This document shows, one piece after another, positions 19,690-48,546 of a stretch of 64,000 bases of DNA (position 1 is its first letter; every line of letters begins with the position of its first letter). The position numbers and the translations under genes were made by a program. Source of the DNA: Escherichia phage RB69; sequence record NC_004928.1, one strand, 5' to 3'. Below the pieces are notes generated by a model, which was not told the origin of the DNA, ran no database searches, and worked only from the letters and a program-made list of their open reading frames with translations.

Positions 19690-19749
19690 TTCAATTTCCT
19701 CTGTAGTTGATAGAAAGATAGTAACACAGTATGTGGTGCTTGTAAACAG

Positions 19750-19962
19750 CTATTTTAAACTTTTGCGAAATTTGCGTTTTTCTTGACGAATCTGTCGTTT
19801 AGTCGGACGTACAGCAAATTTAACGAAGTCCACTTTGCCGTGTGGAAACTTTTCAGATGCTTCACAGTCCATCATTAGTTCCCATCCTTCCAGAATAAGA
19901 GCTTTCCATTGTGTAGTTGATGCAAATTCGTATGTTGATGGTTTAAACACAGTTGAATACAT
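19750..19962 (-). CDS. small basic-tail protein (C-terminal VRPTKRQIR motif)
   Basis: ORF track 19750..20001; likely start Met14 after GAGGA; C-terminus resembles the two small ORFs near gene 49. Confidence 0.45.
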   Translation of the reverse strand: MYSTVFKPSTYEFASTTQWKALILEGWELMMDCEASEKFPHGKVDFVKFAVRPTKRQIRQEKRKFRKSLK

Positions 19963-19963
19963 A

Positions 19964-20176
19964 TTATCCTCTGAAATCAGCTTCAAAAACTTTCTCGTCA
20001 TTAATAAATGCTTTAACTAATGCATTGTTCACTTCAGCAAGTTGTACCGTAACCCACTCGATTTCTTCGCGATCACCTGATAACATGATATCTTTAGTGA
20101 ACATCTCACCGCTTTTAAACCAACCGATAAAAGTAACTTTAGTTAATTTGCTCATATTTCCTCGCAAAATGCCCAT
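19964..20176 (-). CDS. hypothetical protein
   Basis: 70-aa ORF. Confidence 0.4.
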   Translation of the reverse strand: MGILRGNMSKLTKVTFIGWFKSGEMFTKDIMLSGDREEIEWVTVQLAEVNNALVKAFINDEKVFEADFRG

Positions 20177-20469
20177 TCAGCGTGATAAACTGTAGCACCT
20201 TTAGTATTATTCATTTGAACTACGTCTACCGGAGAAATTACTCGATAGAGACGTGGTTCACCTCCATAAGAGCGTGCTGCTCGTCCTGCATAAATCTTTG
20301 CTAAACCGATATCTTCAGTAAAGAATACACGATCCAAGTTTTTCTTACGTCCAGTTTCAGACAGAACTCCTGTTTCCTCAGGAGGACAAAGCATGTTTTC
20401 GATGTTAGCTGAACTACTTGAACCGTGATAAAAAATCTTAAATTCTGCTTTACAATCGATGGTTTTCAT
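20152..20469 (-). CDS. hypothetical protein
   Basis: 105-aa ORF with its own early promoter. Confidence 0.45.
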   Translation of the reverse strand: MKTIDCKAEFKIFYHGSSSSANIENMLCPPEETGVLSETGRKKNLDRVFFTEDIGLAKIYAGRAARSYGGEPRLYRVISPVDVVQMNNTKGATVYHAEWAFCEEI

Positions 20470-20495
20470 TTTGTTCTCCAGTAGGTGATAGGTCT

Positions 20496-20523
20496 ATAAT
20501 ACACAACTACTGGAGAAGTAAAC
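20496..20523 (-). promoter_or_regulatory. early promoter (GTTTAC, 16 nt, TATTAT); spacer complementary to downstream ribosome-binding site
   Basis: ctccagtag (20476-20484) and ctactggag (20508-20516) form a 9-bp inverted repeat that includes the GGAG site. Confidence 0.5.
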
Positions 20524-20898: not shown

Positions 20899-20927
20899 AA
20901 TGTTTTCCTCTTGGTTGGTGTAAGTAC

Positions 20928-20957
20928 ATCATATCATGTCTAGAGGAAGATGTAAAC
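20928..20957 (-). promoter_or_regulatory. early promoter (GTTTAC, 18 nt, TATGAT)
   Basis: minus strand GTTTACatcttcctctagacatgaTATGAT. Confidence 0.4.
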
Positions 20958-20963
20958 CCCGAA

Positions 20964-20988
20964 AGGAGACCGAAGTCTCCTTTTTATT
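20964..20988 (+). terminator. hairpin aggagac-cgaa-gtctcct with T-tract on the plus strand
   Basis: the U-tract follows the stem only on the plus strand; on the minus strand it is a UUCG hairpin just after the gene 41 stop. Confidence 0.4.
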
Positions 20989-22429
20989 AAAATTTTAACT
21001 CATTGGCTAAGCTATCTAGGTCAGCACGTGTTGCTTTGGCTTTACCTACGCGTTCCGTACGATTCACCTCTGCCTGACGCATCTGAGCACCTGCGTTTTC
21101 ATTTACTGTGTTAGGTGTGTTCATGCCTTCTTGCTCAATCTCAACCCATTTCTGATTGCCTTTACGTACACCCATCAGGAATTTATTCCACTTATTCTTA
21201 TCGCCGTATCGTGATTTGATTTGCTTGATAAGTTGTTGTTCAGCTTGTGCAAGTTCTTCGGTTTCAATTACAGCCAACATGAAATCTGCCGTTGCTGGTA
21301 AACCTGCTGATTCTGCGATATCACTCATGTTCATGTCTGAAGCATCCCATGCTGCACGTCCTACTTGAGCTGCAGTCCATAGAACTGTTTCAGATTCTAC
21401 TGCTAATGCACGAAGTTCTTCTGCGATAGCTTTAACTAATGTGTAGCTATTTTCAGTGTAAACTCTGATACGACAAGACCCACAAATACCTAAGTAATCA
21501 ACCATGATTACAGATGGCACAAAGTTCTTCTTAAGTTTTAACTCATTAAGCAATGCACGGAATGTATTAGCATTAGCTCCACCAGTAGGATACTGTTTAA
21601 CTACTAAACGTCCTAATGTTGTTTTTGAACGCCATTTTTCCATCTTGGCTTTATATTCAGCATAAGATACGTTACCATCATCAATATCATCAAGTGATAC
21701 GTCAAGCATGTTTGCATCTATACGCTTAGCGCAAACTTCTTCAGCCATTTCCATAGAAATATAAAGAACGTTATGACCTGTTTGAAGATAATCTGCAGCA
21801 AGTGAACAAAGGCCTAAAGATTTACCGACGTTAACACCAGCCATTAAAACGTTTAGTGTACCGGTTTCAGCACCACCTTTGGTTATTTTATTCAAAATGT
21901 TTAATTTGAACGGGACCTTACGTGCTTTATTTAGATAAGAAAGCCAGCGTGCTTCGTAGTCTTCCATCCAGTCATGTCCAACATAACTATCGAACGAAAT
22001 TGAAAGTGCTTGACGCATAATATCAGGAATAGCTCCTACGTCAGGCATTTTCTTGTTACGTTGTTCTGGAGGTAGTTCAGCATTAGACTGAATTTCAATG
22101 ATTTTGGACGTAGCATTATACATCGCTTTTTGCTGGACATATTTCTCAGTTTCTTTAACCAACCATTCGTGGTCTTCAGGAGTATCAGCCAATTTTTCAA
22201 TTAGGTCTGAAGTTCCTTTATATTCGGCTTCAGTTAAAGAACTGTTATCTAAAGCCACCTTTAATGCATTGATAGATGGCATTGCATTATATTCGTTAAC
22301 GTGGCTCTTTATAATTTTAAAGACGTTTTTTGCCGGTCCACGCTCAAAGTAATCAGAATCCATATAAGGCCAGACCTTAGAAAAATAAGCCTGGTCATAT
22401 ACTAGATGAGACAAAATAATTTCTACCAC
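20987..22429 (-). CDS. 41: replicative DNA helicase gp41 (DnaB-like)
   Basis: 480 aa; colinear with the T4 gp41 sequence as I recall it. Confidence 0.9.
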   Translation of the reverse strand: MVEIILSHLVYDQAYFSKVWPYMDSDYFERGPAKNVFKIIKSHVNEYNAMPSINALKVALDNSSLTEAEYKGTSDLIEKLADTPEDHEWLVKETEKYVQQKAMYNATSKIIEIQSNAELPPEQRNKKMPDVGAIPDIMRQALSISFDSYVGHDWMEDYEARWLSYLNKARKVPFKLNILNKITKGGAETGTLNVLMAGVNVGKSLGLCSLAADYLQTGHNVLYISMEMAEEVCAKRIDANMLDVSLDDIDDGNVSYAEYKAKMEKWRSKTTLGRLVVKQYPTGGANANTFRALLNELKLKKNFVPSVIMVDYLGICGSCRIRVYTENSYTLVKAIAEELRALAVESETVLWTAAQVGRAAWDASDMNMSDIAESAGLPATADFMLAVIETEELAQAEQQLIKQIKSRYGDKNKWNKFLMGVRKGNQKWVEIEQEGMNTPNTVNENAGAQMRQAEVNRTERVGKAKATRADLDSLANELKF

Positions 22430-45447: not shown

Positions 45448-47261
45448 TGGTGTTTAACCCTATGCATGATTTCTTTATTTTTACCGAGATTAAATCCGCG
45501 TTCGTTCGGATTTCCCAAATAACCGCATGTTCTTCTTATGGTGTTCATCTTTTTAGGATCAGTTTCTCCACAAATAGAACAAACAAATCCGGTTTCAGTA
45601 GGAGTCATTTCATGGGTACTTCCGCATGTAAAACATTTATCTACTGGCATATTAACACCAAAATAATCTAAATGTTGTGCAGCATAATCCCACACGGCCT
45701 CAAGACCTTTTAAGTTATTTTTCATATCAGGAAGTTCAACATAAGAAATGTGACCACCTGTCGCAATGAAATGATATGGCGCTTCACGAGAAATCTTTTC
45801 AAACGGAGTAATATTTTCTTCTACTGAAACATGGAAACTATTAGTGTACCAGCCTTTATCAGTAACATCCTTTACACTTCCATATTTTTCTGTATCAAGT
45901 TTACAGAAGCGATAACAAAGGTTTTCAGCAGGTGTAGAATACAAGCTAAAAGCAAACCCAGTTCTTTCAGTCCATTGTTTAAGAAGAGCATTCATTTTAG
46001 TTAAAATTTCTTGTCCAATATCACGACCGACAAGAATATTCAATTCGTGAATACCAATGTATCCTAGGGACACTGAACTTCTACCATTTTTAAATAACTC
46101 AATTATGTCATCATCAGGTTTAAGACGAACCCCGAATGCACCTTCTTGGTAAAGAATAGGAGCAACAGTAGCTTTAACTCCTTTTAAGGAACTAATTCTA
46201 CACATCAAAGCTTCAAAACACAGGTCCATTCGCTCATCGAACAATTCAGTAAATTTCTGTTCATTGAACTGTGTTCCAATATAAGAATCTAACGCAATAC
46301 GAGGAAGATTCAGTGTTACAACGCCAAGATTATTGCGTCCATCAAGAATTTCATTGCCAGTTGAATCTTTCCATATGCTCAAGAAACTACGGCAACCCAT
46401 TGGAGAAACAGGAACTGAAGAACCGGTAATAGCTTTATTATTCTTAACCGAAATAATGTCAGGATACATTCTTTTGCTTGCGCACTCTAACGCAAGTTGT
46501 TTAATATCATAGTTCGGATCATCTTTATAAAGATTAACACCTTCTTCAACAAACATAACAAGTTTAGGAAAAATAGGAGTTATTCCATCACGACCAAGAC
46601 CTTTAATGCGGTTTTTAAGAATTGCTTTCTGAATCATTCGTTCAGTCCAGTCAGTTCCCGTACCAAATGTAATTGTTACAAAAGGCGTTTGTCCGTTTGA
46701 ACTAAAGAGAGTATTTACTTCATATTCATAAGCTTGGAATGCATCGTATACGTCTTTTTCTGTTTTAGACTGGGCATAATTCAACGCATCAGCGATTTGC
46801 CATTTTTCTGCATCCTCAATATGTTTTGCATAGGTGCGTTTAACATAAGGAGAAAGTACTTTATCTACATTAGCAAAAGTCGTTCCGCCGTATTGATGGG
46901 AAGCAACCTGTGCAGTAATTTGTGCCATAATTGCAGTAGCAACGCCAATAGATTTAGGCGTTTCAATTTGAGCATTGCCTAATTTAAATCCATTCTCAAG
47001 CATCCCCTTTAAATCGACTAAACAGCAATTGGTAAACGGAAGAGCAGGAGAATAATCAATATCATGCATGTGAATGATTCCGCTTTCATGCGCATGCATA
47101 ATAAAAGACGGGACCATATTTTTGGCAATGTGCTTAGACACAATACCAGCCATAAGGTCCCGTTGAGTTGGAAAAACACGAGAATCTTTATTAGCATTCT
47201 CGTTCAAAAGATCTTTATTAGTTTTATAAATTAATCCTTCAATTTCTTTTTCAATTTTCAT
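45444..47261 (-). CDS. nrdD: anaerobic ribonucleoside-triphosphate reductase NrdD, uninterrupted
   Basis: 605 aa; glycyl-radical motif RRTCGYLG near the C-terminus; continuous ORF, no intron. Confidence 0.9.
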   Translation of the reverse strand: MKIEKEIEGLIYKTNKDLLNENANKDSRVFPTQRDLMAGIVSKHIAKNMVPSFIMHAHESGIIHMHDIDYSPALPFTNCCLVDLKGMLENGFKLGNAQIETPKSIGVATAIMAQITAQVASHQYGGTTFANVDKVLSPYVKRTYAKHIEDAEKWQIADALNYAQSKTEKDVYDAFQAYEYEVNTLFSSNGQTPFVTITFGTGTDWTERMIQKAILKNRIKGLGRDGITPIFPKLVMFVEEGVNLYKDDPNYDIKQLALECASKRMYPDIISVKNNKAITGSSVPVSPMGCRSFLSIWKDSTGNEILDGRNNLGVVTLNLPRIALDSYIGTQFNEQKFTELFDERMDLCFEALMCRISSLKGVKATVAPILYQEGAFGVRLKPDDDIIELFKNGRSSVSLGYIGIHELNILVGRDIGQEILTKMNALLKQWTERTGFAFSLYSTPAENLCYRFCKLDTEKYGSVKDVTDKGWYTNSFHVSVEENITPFEKISREAPYHFIATGGHISYVELPDMKNNLKGLEAVWDYAAQHLDYFGVNMPVDKCFTCGSTHEMTPTETGFVCSICGETDPKKMNTIRRTCGYLGNPNERGFNLGKNKEIMHRVKHQ

Positions 47262-47731
47262 TTTAAACTCTTTCTAAGCTGCTTTTTGAATGAAGCTATT
47301 AATTGTGTTTTAGTATCAGATTCATTATATTCAAATCCTCTTTGAAGCATCTCAGCCATCATTTCCTCTTTACCTAGTCTTGAGAACTCTTTAGTTTTGT
47401 CTGGAACAAAATTAGGATGGATATTATTATCAGAATAATCTTGTTTCAAATAAGCAAGAAGAGCTTCAAGCCATTCTAAGTAGTCAACGTTTTGTCCTTT
47501 CAAACCGGAACGGTTGAACTTATGCTTCATTTGACCTTCTGCTGCGTTGCACAGATTACAGAGTAATCCACGAACTCTACCGGCTTTTGGCCCGTTTAAT
47601 TCATGGTCGTGGTCAAGATGGTTACCTTGAACATCAGGGTCTAATTCACGGTGGCAAATAGGACACTTACCGTTCTGTGCATCATAAAATTTTTGTTTTT
47701 CTTCTTTATATTTTGCGCCTGATAATAACAT
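47258..47731 (-). CDS. 49: endonuclease VII (Holliday-junction resolvase) gp49
   Basis: 157 aa; near-identical to T4 endo VII as I recall it. Confidence 0.9.
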   Translation of the reverse strand: MLLSGAKYKEEKQKFYDAQNGKCPICHRELDPDVQGNHLDHDHELNGPKAGRVRGLLCNLCNAAEGQMKHKFNRSGLKGQNVDYLEWLEALLAYLKQDYSDNNIHPNFVPDKTKEFSRLGKEEMMAEMLQRGFEYNESDTKTQLIASFKKQLRKSLK

Positions 47732-47737
47732 GATAAA

Positions 47738-47768
47738 CCCTTACCTTAAATAGATAAGGGTATTTATA
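47738..47768 (-). promoter_or_regulatory. late promoter TATAAATA (47761-47768) with hairpin (47738-47760) covering the gene 49 ribosome-binding site
   Basis: minus strand TATAAATAcccttatctatttaaggtaagggtttatcATG; ccctta/taaggg stem includes the AAGG site. Confidence 0.55.
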
Positions 47769-47770
47769 AT

Positions 47771-47950
47771 TTAGTAAACGTTATAAAAGTCTCGATGAAA
47801 ACGTTTATATTGACGAATCATTTTCTTAGTAGGACGTGTTACTGAAATAATTGAAGTAGTCATAGTCGGATTGTTTGGAGCGCCAGTCATAACAAATTTC
47901 CAGGATTTTTGGCCATTTTTTCTTTCACCATAAAATAATTCAGTTTTCAT
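47771..47950 (-). CDS. small basic-tail protein, family member 1
   Basis: 59 aa translated by hand (MKTELFYGERKNGQKSWKFVMTGAPNNPTMTTSIISVTRPTKKMIRQYKRFHRDFYNVY). Confidence 0.4.
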   Translation of the reverse strand: MKTELFYGERKNGQKSWKFVMTGAPNNPTMTTSIISVTRPTKKMIRQYKRFHRDFYNVY

Positions 47951-47959
47951 AATAAACCT

Positions 47960-48373
47960 TTAACTTAAACGTCTTTCTAAATATTCAATGTATTCCGCTG
48001 CGGCTTGCATCAGATTACCTTCATAACCGTCATTATTTTCTTGGGCGGCTAATTTAGCTAAAGCATAAGAAATACGTTCACCTTCGAATTCGCCAAGTCC
48101 ACCATCACAAACTACTTGGTCAATTTCTTCGAGTTCATCTATTGAATGGGATTCCCAGAAGCACCAAAGAGAAGTATCACGGTCATAGATGCAAAGTTTC
48201 TCACCTGTGTTCAACATCACTTCGATAATGCCATGGTCGCCATAACCATCTTCGGTAGTAGTACCAATTACCTTGATGATTGTTCCTTTCTTTAATTCAG
48301 GAAACTTGACTTGTAGTTCTTCATCTTCTTTAACAATCTTGAACCATTTACCGCGAGTTTCAGAAATATTCAT
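47960..48373 (-). CDS. hypothetical acidic protein
   Basis: ORF track extends to 48511; likely start Met47 (MNISETRGKW). Confidence 0.45.
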   Translation of the reverse strand: MNISETRGKWFKIVKEDEELQVKFPELKKGTIIKVIGTTTEDGYGDHGIIEVMLNTGEKLCIYDRDTSLWCFWESHSIDELEEIDQVVCDGGLGEFEGERISYALAKLAAQENNDGYEGNLMQAAAEYIEYLERRLS

Positions 48374-48374
48374 A

Positions 48375-48546
48375 TCAATATTCTCTATAAAAGTTACGAT
48401 GAGAACGTTTAGCTTTGCGAAGCTGACGTTTAGTAGGACGAACTGTAAATGGTTGTCCAGAGAAAAAATTCGGATCGGTTTTAATAAGCAAATACCAATC
48501 ATGTTTGCCATTTTTTTAATAAACGGTACAATAATTTAACTTGCAT
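48375..48546 (-). pseudogene. frameshifted paralogue of 47771..47950, broken at an A7 tract (48511-48517)
   Basis: frame 1 gives MQVKLLYRLLKKWQT then stop; the -1 frame continues KNGKHDWYLLIKTDPNFFSGQPFTVRPTKRQLRKAKRSHRNFYREY; removing one A restores a single ORF. Confidence 0.4.

Follow-up and report, generated by a model that had tools for sequence, protein, structure and literature searches.

TifA (ToxN inhibitory factor A) belongs to a small number of phage counter-defence proteins whose mechanism has been worked out; this mechanism, the RNA-dependent trapping of a toxin RNase, is unusual. It is encoded by tifA (61.4) and acts as a protein, as a recoded gene works and deletion of the start codon fails; it rescues cells from the endoribonuclease ToxN, which belongs to the type III toxin-antitoxin defence toxIN, and it co-precipitates with ToxN during infection (PMC10853763 / bioRxiv 10.1101/2022.04.14.488369). 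AlphaFold models of TifA show a basic helix at the C-terminus, against which a three-stranded beta-sheet packs (Guegler et al., NAR 2024, PMC10853763). Synthetic TifA-RB69 binds RNA with a KD of 0.36-2.3 uM, and the substitutions P53A/T54A and K55A/R56A/R59A in this protein abolished RNA binding/co-purification as well as ToxN neutralisation (PMC10853763). The sheet and loop region determines which ToxN variants TifA acts on, and Guegler et al. describe this specificity region as variable and the helix as conserved; in the published model, ToxN is trapped by TifA on abundant RNA, notably 16S rRNA (PMC10853763). Note that the enterococcal "TifA" papers concern a different, unrelated protein.

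We analysed a stretch of 64,000 nucleotides from Escherichia phage RB69 (NC_004928.1), hereafter the window. This is DNA of a T4-like Mosigvirus, and by exact protein look-ups its products at the three loci compared could not be told apart from those of RB69. In a preliminary description of this DNA, three small minus-strand ORFs had been singled out for their related basic C-terminal tails, and all three were located where they had been placed. Their positions, and that of the homopolymer that interrupts the third, are as follows:

19750..19962, minus strand: ORF1, tifA (formerly 61.4), 70 aa; assigned by PF23945 and an exact protein match
47771..47950, minus strand: ORF2 (RB69ORF087c), TifA paralogue, 59 aa, between pin and gene 49
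48375..48546, minus strand: ORF3 (RB69ORF089c), TifA paralogue, frameshifted; 56 aa if the A run is A6
48511..48517, minus strand: A7 homopolymer, source of the ORF3 frameshift

ORF1 starts with an ATG at 19962 that has GAGG ahead of it, and its product ends FAVRPTKRQIRQEKRKFRKSLK. In a protein look-up, its sequence matched the RB69 protein AAP75940.1 exactly, and in relatives it is annotated as the homologue of T4 gp61.4. Identity to T4 gp61.4 was 57% as computed here; the published value for RB69 and T4 TifA is 56% (PMC10853763). ORF1 has no C-terminal extension, as described for RB69 TifA (PMC10853763 / bioRxiv 10.1101/2022.04.14.488369), and its residues P53, T54, K55, R56 and R59 fall exactly on RPTKRQIR, such that R52-P53-T54-K55-R56-x-x-R59 opens the RNA-binding helix. 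The TifA specificity region (the sheet and the loop around residue 41) of ORF1 is identical to that of the RB69 allele; ORF2 and ORF3 have little in common with TifA in this region apart from the Trp. Given the exact match to AAP75940.1, the ~56-57% identity with T4, the lack of an extension and the P53-R59 numbering, ORF1 is, as read from its sequence, the RB69 allele of TifA, a protein whose function is published by others. At a few positions, ORF1 does not agree with the machine-read sequence of the published Table S2; we ascribe this to text extraction since the database look-up of ORF1 was exact.

An AF2 model of ORF1, with strands at residues 2-6, 27-33 and 43-49 and a helix at 55-69 (pLDDT 80), agrees with the published architecture of a three-stranded sheet and a basic helix. 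The basic tail corresponds to the TifA helix, and the original puzzle is thereby removed. The earlier guess that such a tail binds nucleic acid was right, since RNA binding is published for ORF1's own protein (PMC10853763), and it is confirmed that the three ORFs are a real feature of an already known kind. The other guess, a targeting signal, was wrong, as the tail is predicted to form a Pro-Thr-capped amphipathic alpha-helix packed on the three-stranded beta-sheet. The C-terminal position of the shared element holds for ORF1, ORF2 and ORF3 and does not hold for the family at large, because T4 TifA and other members extend beyond the helix.

The surroundings of ORF1 also correspond to those known for TifA, and contain the following features:

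19964..20155, minus strand: dmd (61.5), antitoxin-like inhibitor of RnlA/LsoA; PF17587 Dmd, E 1.3e-21
20152..20469, minus strand: 105-aa ORF (MKTIDCKAEFKIFYHGSSS...), its stop overlapping the dmd start (ATGA)
20495..20523, minus strand: T4-early-type promoter-like site, GTTTAC, 16 or 17 nt, TATTAT or ATTATA; consensus match only

The dmd gene, annotated as such in a relative, is the upstream operon partner of tifA, with its stop 1 nt ahead of the ORF1 ATG; a dmd-tifA operon has been described (PMC10853763 / bioRxiv 10.1101/2022.04.14.488369). The dmd-adjacent position in the gene 41-61 interval, within one early operon, is found for ORF1 and not for ORF2 or ORF3. The 105-aa ORF had no match in Pfam or PADLOC, and its annotation in a relative is hypothetical protein. 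A single operon, ORF105-dmd-tifA, is likely, in which this ORF comes first and is followed by two genes that each neutralise a host RNase toxin; on the grounds of this shared operon, the ORF is a candidate third counter-defence gene.

The preliminary description had also stated that each of the three ORFs follows a promoter cassette, and this was borne out in part. For ORF3 it holds loosely, a promoter-like GTTTACA-N17-TATGAT site being present ~50 nt upstream. For ORF1 it holds only indirectly: the site at 20523..20495, which was read from the sequence and is not listed by the automated promoter scan, lies ~560 nt upstream, ahead of ORF105-dmd-tifA, in which ORF1 is the last gene. Its spacing of 16 or 17 nt depends on the -10 hexamer chosen. 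No comparable promoter-like site was found upstream of ORF2, and the generic promoter scans were not above shuffle expectation, for which reason we place no weight on them. Further sites of this type were seen in the same region. Specifically, a GTTTACA-N17-TACTAT site directly follows the tifA stop (19718..19746, minus strand), and after gene 41 (~20925..20990, minus strand) there is a GC-rich hairpin, GGAGACttcgGTCTCC, with GTTTACA-N17-TATGAT immediately behind it. These units of terminator and early promoter presumably resemble the mobile promoter/stem-loop cassettes of T4-type phages. In addition, the ending RKSLK is common to TifA-RB69 (19750..19770) and endonuclease VII (47258..47275); this is probably chance, as the DNA match is just 10 nt, AGTTTAAAAT.

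The three ORFs form a genuine paralogous family, as had been proposed from their tails. Each matches Pfam DUF7279 (PF23945), with 72.1 bits for ORF1 (E 3.5e-20), 58.1 bits for ORF2 (E 8.5e-16) and 54.5 bits for ORF3 repaired by the removal of one A (E 1.1e-14), all above the gathering score of 24.5 bits. They have in common the motif RPTK[KR]x[IL]R (RPTKRQIR in ORF1, RPTKKMIR in ORF2 and RPTKRQLR in ORF3) and additional basic residues. The motif occurs three times in the six-frame translation of the window, as compared with a mean of 0 over 200 shuffles. When the window was searched with a family HMM, ORF1, ORF2 and ORF3 were the only members found (E 1e-29, 9e-24 and 1.5e-19, respectively), the next best match having an E-value of 0.3. 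The likeness reaches past the tail, as the Trp of strand 2 is invariant and overall length and pattern also align. Among 14 diverse members, P, T, K55, R59, K62 and R66 (TifA numbering) are invariant and R63 is nearly so; the family-invariant basic residues at i, i+4, i+7, (i+8) and i+11 make up one face of a helix.

The preliminary description had named commonness of the motif in unrelated proteins as something that would speak against it, and the motif is not common in such proteins. A profile search of 1.84 billion representative proteins with a cut-off of E<=1e-3 gave 11 matches, that is, 11 representative clusters, so that there are no distant annotated relatives to lend a function; word-indexed homology searches gave 7 and 2 matches. 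The family, which had not been recognised at that stage, is already catalogued as Pfam DUF7279 and as the TifA family. Furthermore, an ORF3-type protein is present in the published TifA alignment (PMC10853763), and the pin-flanking type is therefore already counted in the TifA family. A PADLOC search found no match, and a literature search on "DUF7279" found nothing relevant. Several NCBI entries named "DUF7279 family protein [Shigella sonnei / Escherichia coli]" lie on contigs of ~168-172 kb; evidently, the contigs are genomes of T4-like phages within bacterial assemblies, and the genes are not bacterial.

ORF2 and ORF3 lie on either side of pin, in a region with these further features:

47258..47731, minus strand: gene 49, endonuclease VII, downstream neighbour of ORF2
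47737..47761, minus strand: hairpin ACCCTTA...TAAGGGT, between the ORF2 stop and the gene 49 start
47960..48373, minus strand: pin (PinA, inhibitor of host Lon protease), 137 aa; PF10465, E 9.8e-49

The ORF2 product ends VTRPTKKMIRQYKRFHRDFYNVY, and its sequence matched NP_861777.1 exactly in a protein look-up. Its AF2 model has strands at residues 2-9, 15-22 and 31-36 and a helix at 42-58 (pLDDT 90), and the helix opens with P40-T41-K42-K43-x-x-R46; the predicted fold is thus the TifA-like three-stranded sheet and basic helix with shorter connections. Foldseek searches with this model found no match at E<=1e-3 in BFVD, where the best were small uncharacterised proteins of T4-like phages, and none at E<=1e-3 in the PDB, where PAS/LOV, Pur-alpha and dsRBD matches all had E>0.3 and were treated as noise. 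Orthologues of ORF2 are found immediately upstream of gene 49 in three phage groups (Mosigvirus, Tequatrovirus PP01 and loci L008-L015). The hairpin between the two genes is conserved in the window, T4, PP01 and FL18. It is probably the structure that controls gene 49 translation in T4.

ORF2 is under purifying selection. Although pS among its orthologues reaches 0.68, their amino-acid divergence is low, with dN/dS of 0.04-0.31 in 11 pairs. The pN/pS ratio is 0.17 in the cap and helix, as compared with 0.40 in the N-terminal part, a profile that mirrors the published one for TifA, where the helix is conserved and the specificity region varies (PMC10853763). Purifying selection together with this TifA-like pattern argues that ORF2 is translated and functional. 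These data also bear on the notion that conservation acts on the DNA of the shared element, for example a recombination or regulatory cassette, with ORF2 and ORF3 untranslated. The two pin-flanking copies do serve as recombination substrates (see below) and promoter-like sites are nearby; however, such conservation is hard to reconcile with orthologues that differ at so many synonymous sites and so little in protein. Nor are the tails alike enough as DNA, their identity among the copies being only 67-71%. When the ORF1 tail is compared with those of ORF2 and ORF3, third codon positions are 53-60% conserved as compared with 70-77% for first and second positions, and this lower conservation of third positions points to selection on the protein. 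In addition, ORF2 and ORF3 both have a Shine-Dalgarno-like sequence and an ATG, the fold prediction for ORF2 is confident, and ORF1, their homologue, has been proven to work at the protein level, its recoded gene still being functional. Conservation of a DNA element without translation is accordingly very improbable, and a DNA repeat or promoter cassette as the source of the tail likeness was rejected on the codon-position and dN/dS evidence.

The third copy had been described as frameshifted, and we found the same: one additional base in the A7 run, a +1 frameshift, breaks the reading frame of ORF3. Its ATG at 48546 overlaps the end of gene 49.1, and its stop (48375..48377) lies two bases before the pin ATG. 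With one A removed, ORF3 encodes a 56-aa protein, MQVKLLYRLLKNGKHDWYLLIKTDPNFFSGQPFTVRPTKRQLRKAKRSHRNFYREY, that ends TVRPTKRQLRKAKRSHRNFYREY. The RB69 reference annotates only the 38-aa remnant, which in the window is identical to NP_861779.1. An intact ORF3 CDS of 171 bp is annotated in p000y, UGJNEcP1 and TU01, all with A6, and in all four relatives that were read directly the run is A6 and the ORF is uninterrupted. The identical intact 56-aa protein was found on 261 contigs. Moreover, none of 129 matching phage records (Mosigvirus) contains an exact copy of the window's 71-nt stretch with A7, the matches listed all spanning 70 nt, one base fewer; the ORF3 frameshift is therefore found in RB69 alone, and its additional A is either a sequencing error in a homopolymer of the reference or the mark of a strain-specific pseudogene. 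Programmed frameshifting at this run is unlikely, because the matching records are one base shorter and the four relatives with A6 have an intact ORF.

The arrangement around pin, which is annotated in relatives, suggests that the two paralogues recombine with each other. ORF3 and ORF2 are direct repeats that flank pin (window 47771..48546). In FL18, phiE142, ST0, Shf125875 and others, pin is absent and a single DUF7279 gene lies between 49.1 and gene 49; this single-piece junction was present in FL18, phiE142 and at least 25 more phage records, hence in at least 27 altogether. The gene (in FL18, locus L018, 1301..1515) is a chimera in which the body of ORF3 is followed by the last three codons of ORF2 (NVY), the stop and the hairpin, and the junction falls within the shared ACTTTTATA. 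On the simplest reading, pin was lost together with most of ORF2 through homologous recombination between the helix-coding ends of the paralogues. A gain of pin by insertion of a cassette would be the less parsimonious direction, since other genera also have an ORF2-type gene upstream of gene 49. The paralogues, as direct repeats, thereby account for the presence and absence of pin among Mosigviruses.

A different rearrangement was found in T4 and T2, for which the following gene was compared:

L016 6686..7171: T4 pin, compared with L017 (PP01) and window 47725..48060

Pin of T4 and T2 has 161 aa and ends RMIQQYKRLHQMFYNT, which represents the last 16 residues of an ORF2-type protein and derives from its helix. 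Relative to PP01, a 137-bp deletion in T4 and T2 that covers the stop codon of pin and codons 1-42 of the paralogue has fused the two genes; as a result, there is no intact pin-side paralogue in these phages, whereas RB69 has one. The Pfam PinA profile ends at about residue 136, which is consistent with a foreign origin of the extra tail. Canonical T4 PinA thus carries a relic of a TifA-like helix.

The repeated losses (the ORF3 frameshift, the deletion of ORF2 and pin, and the relic in T4 and T2) fit the behaviour of an accessory, host-dependent gene, which is typical of counter-defence genes. They also weigh on another view of ORF2 and ORF3, namely that they are general RNA-binding housekeeping proteins that act in mRNA stability, translation control or ribosome association and not in counter-defence. 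The conserved part of the family is indeed the nucleic-acid-binding helix and not a target-contact surface, TifA itself associates with 16S rRNA, and the position of ORF2 just upstream of gene 49 is fixed across genera. However, these genes are dispensable in nature, as ORF2 is deleted with pin in at least 27 records, T4 and T2 retain only a relic of the ORF2 type, and the RB69 copy of ORF3 carries a frameshift; the family is also narrow, with its 11 representative clusters, unlike core functions. We consider a housekeeping role unlikely.

RB69 is much less restricted by toxIN than T2, T4 and T6 (PMC10853763 / bioRxiv 10.1101/2022.04.14.488369), and an intact ORF2-type gene is present in RB69 and in neither T4 nor T2. 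ORF2 and ORF3 might accordingly be redundant ToxN inhibitors that raise the TifA-like dose and add to the toxIN insensitivity of RB69. Dose does matter, since T4 escapes toxIN by amplification of tifA (PMC10853763 / bioRxiv 10.1101/2022.04.14.488369), and the RNA-binding helix is conserved in both paralogues. Yet plasmid-borne TifA-RB69 by itself outperforms TifA-T4 (PMC10853763 / bioRxiv 10.1101/2022.04.14.488369), ORF3 is inactive in RB69, and the N-terminal region of both paralogues differs strongly from that of TifA. TifA homologues are, furthermore, specific: the six homologues from other phages in the published panel neutralised no tested ToxN or TenpN (PMC10853763), and the inactivity of such divergent homologues on the tested toxins means that membership in the family does not predict ToxN inhibition. 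Redundancy with TifA is, in our judgement, improbable.

We therefore return to the reading of ORF2 and ORF3 as accessory counter-defence genes. In the explanation that we propose, members of the TifA family are small phage proteins in which a three-stranded beta-sheet is combined with a basic alpha-helix capped by Pro-Thr. TifA (ORF1) is an early protein, co-transcribed with dmd, whose helix binds RNA through K55, R56, R59 and more basic residues on the same face. The helix and contacts made by the sheet and loop trap ToxN in an inert ribonucleoprotein complex, enriched in 16S rRNA according to the published finding, and phage transcripts are spared. ORF2 and ORF3 are old paralogues that have retained the cap, the basic stripe and the predicted fold and that have a different N-terminal specificity part; most likely, they too bind RNA via the helix, and their putative accessory counter-defence role is probably directed at a target other than the ToxN variants handled by TifA. 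We hold it highly probable, overall, that ORF1 is TifA and that ORF2 and ORF3 are TifA-family paralogues, likely RNA-binding accessory counter-defence factors.

A more specific version can be offered tentatively. ORF2 and intact ORF3 could perhaps be second and third specificity classes of TifA-like "RNA-glue" inhibitors, each using the same helix to tether a target of its own, be it a host RNase or some other defence effector associated with RNA, such as the type III toxins TenpN or CptN. If this were true, the TifA paralogues of T4-like phages would make up a small, recombining arsenal, and their gain, loss and chimerisation, including the RB69 frameshift, the FL18/phiE142 chimera and the T4 pin fusion, would track host defence repertoires. 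The point of use here is that RB69 has two more TifA-family genes outside the panel of the functional papers: the ten-homologue neutralisation panel included none (0 of 10) of the 56-59-aa pin-flanking type (PMC10853763), and these paralogues turned up neither in the TifA functional papers nor in a literature search on the RB69 ORF names. RB69ORF087c is intact, RB69ORF089c is inactivated in RB69 only, and T4 and T2 have lost the intact counterpart. This raises the questions of whether the paralogues act against other defence RNases and whether they contribute to the low toxIN sensitivity of RB69. The pin-flanking paralogues are a modest, testable lead and not a new kind of system.

Among known systems, the closest is TifA itself (T4 gp61.4 / RB69 Q7Y5A0; Srikant et al. 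2022, Guegler et al. 2024), and ORF1, judged by its match and by the dmd gene upstream, is the same protein. ORF2 and ORF3 are like TifA in the Pro-Thr cap, the basic stripe (equivalents of K55, R59, K62, R63 and R66) and the Trp of strand 2, and ORF2 also in its predicted sheet-plus-helix fold. They are unlike TifA in size (59 and 56 aa as compared with 70 and 85) and in location, lying ~28 kb away, beside pin and near gene 49, and not beside dmd. Pairwise identity among ORF2, ORF3 and TifA is ~25-37%, and the N-terminal half of both paralogues is ~11-14 residues shorter and barely alignable with TifA beyond the Trp. Catalogues divide the family differently. PHROGs separates the TifA type (PHROG 2375; ORF1 is in phrog_2375) from the pin-flanking type (PHROG 3272; ORF2 and ORF3 are in phrog_3272), both annotated as of unknown function, whereas Pfam DUF7279, in which all three ORFs score well above threshold and from which the NCBI name "DUF7279 family protein" is already taken, unites them; no function is attached to any of these entries. 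Dmd (T4 gp61.5), a phage antitoxin against RnlA/LsoA, resembles TifA in being small, early and active against an RNase toxin of the host, and the two share an operon. It belongs, however, to an unrelated family (PF17587), and the inhibition of ToxN by TifA involves both protein and RNA, in contrast with Dmd.
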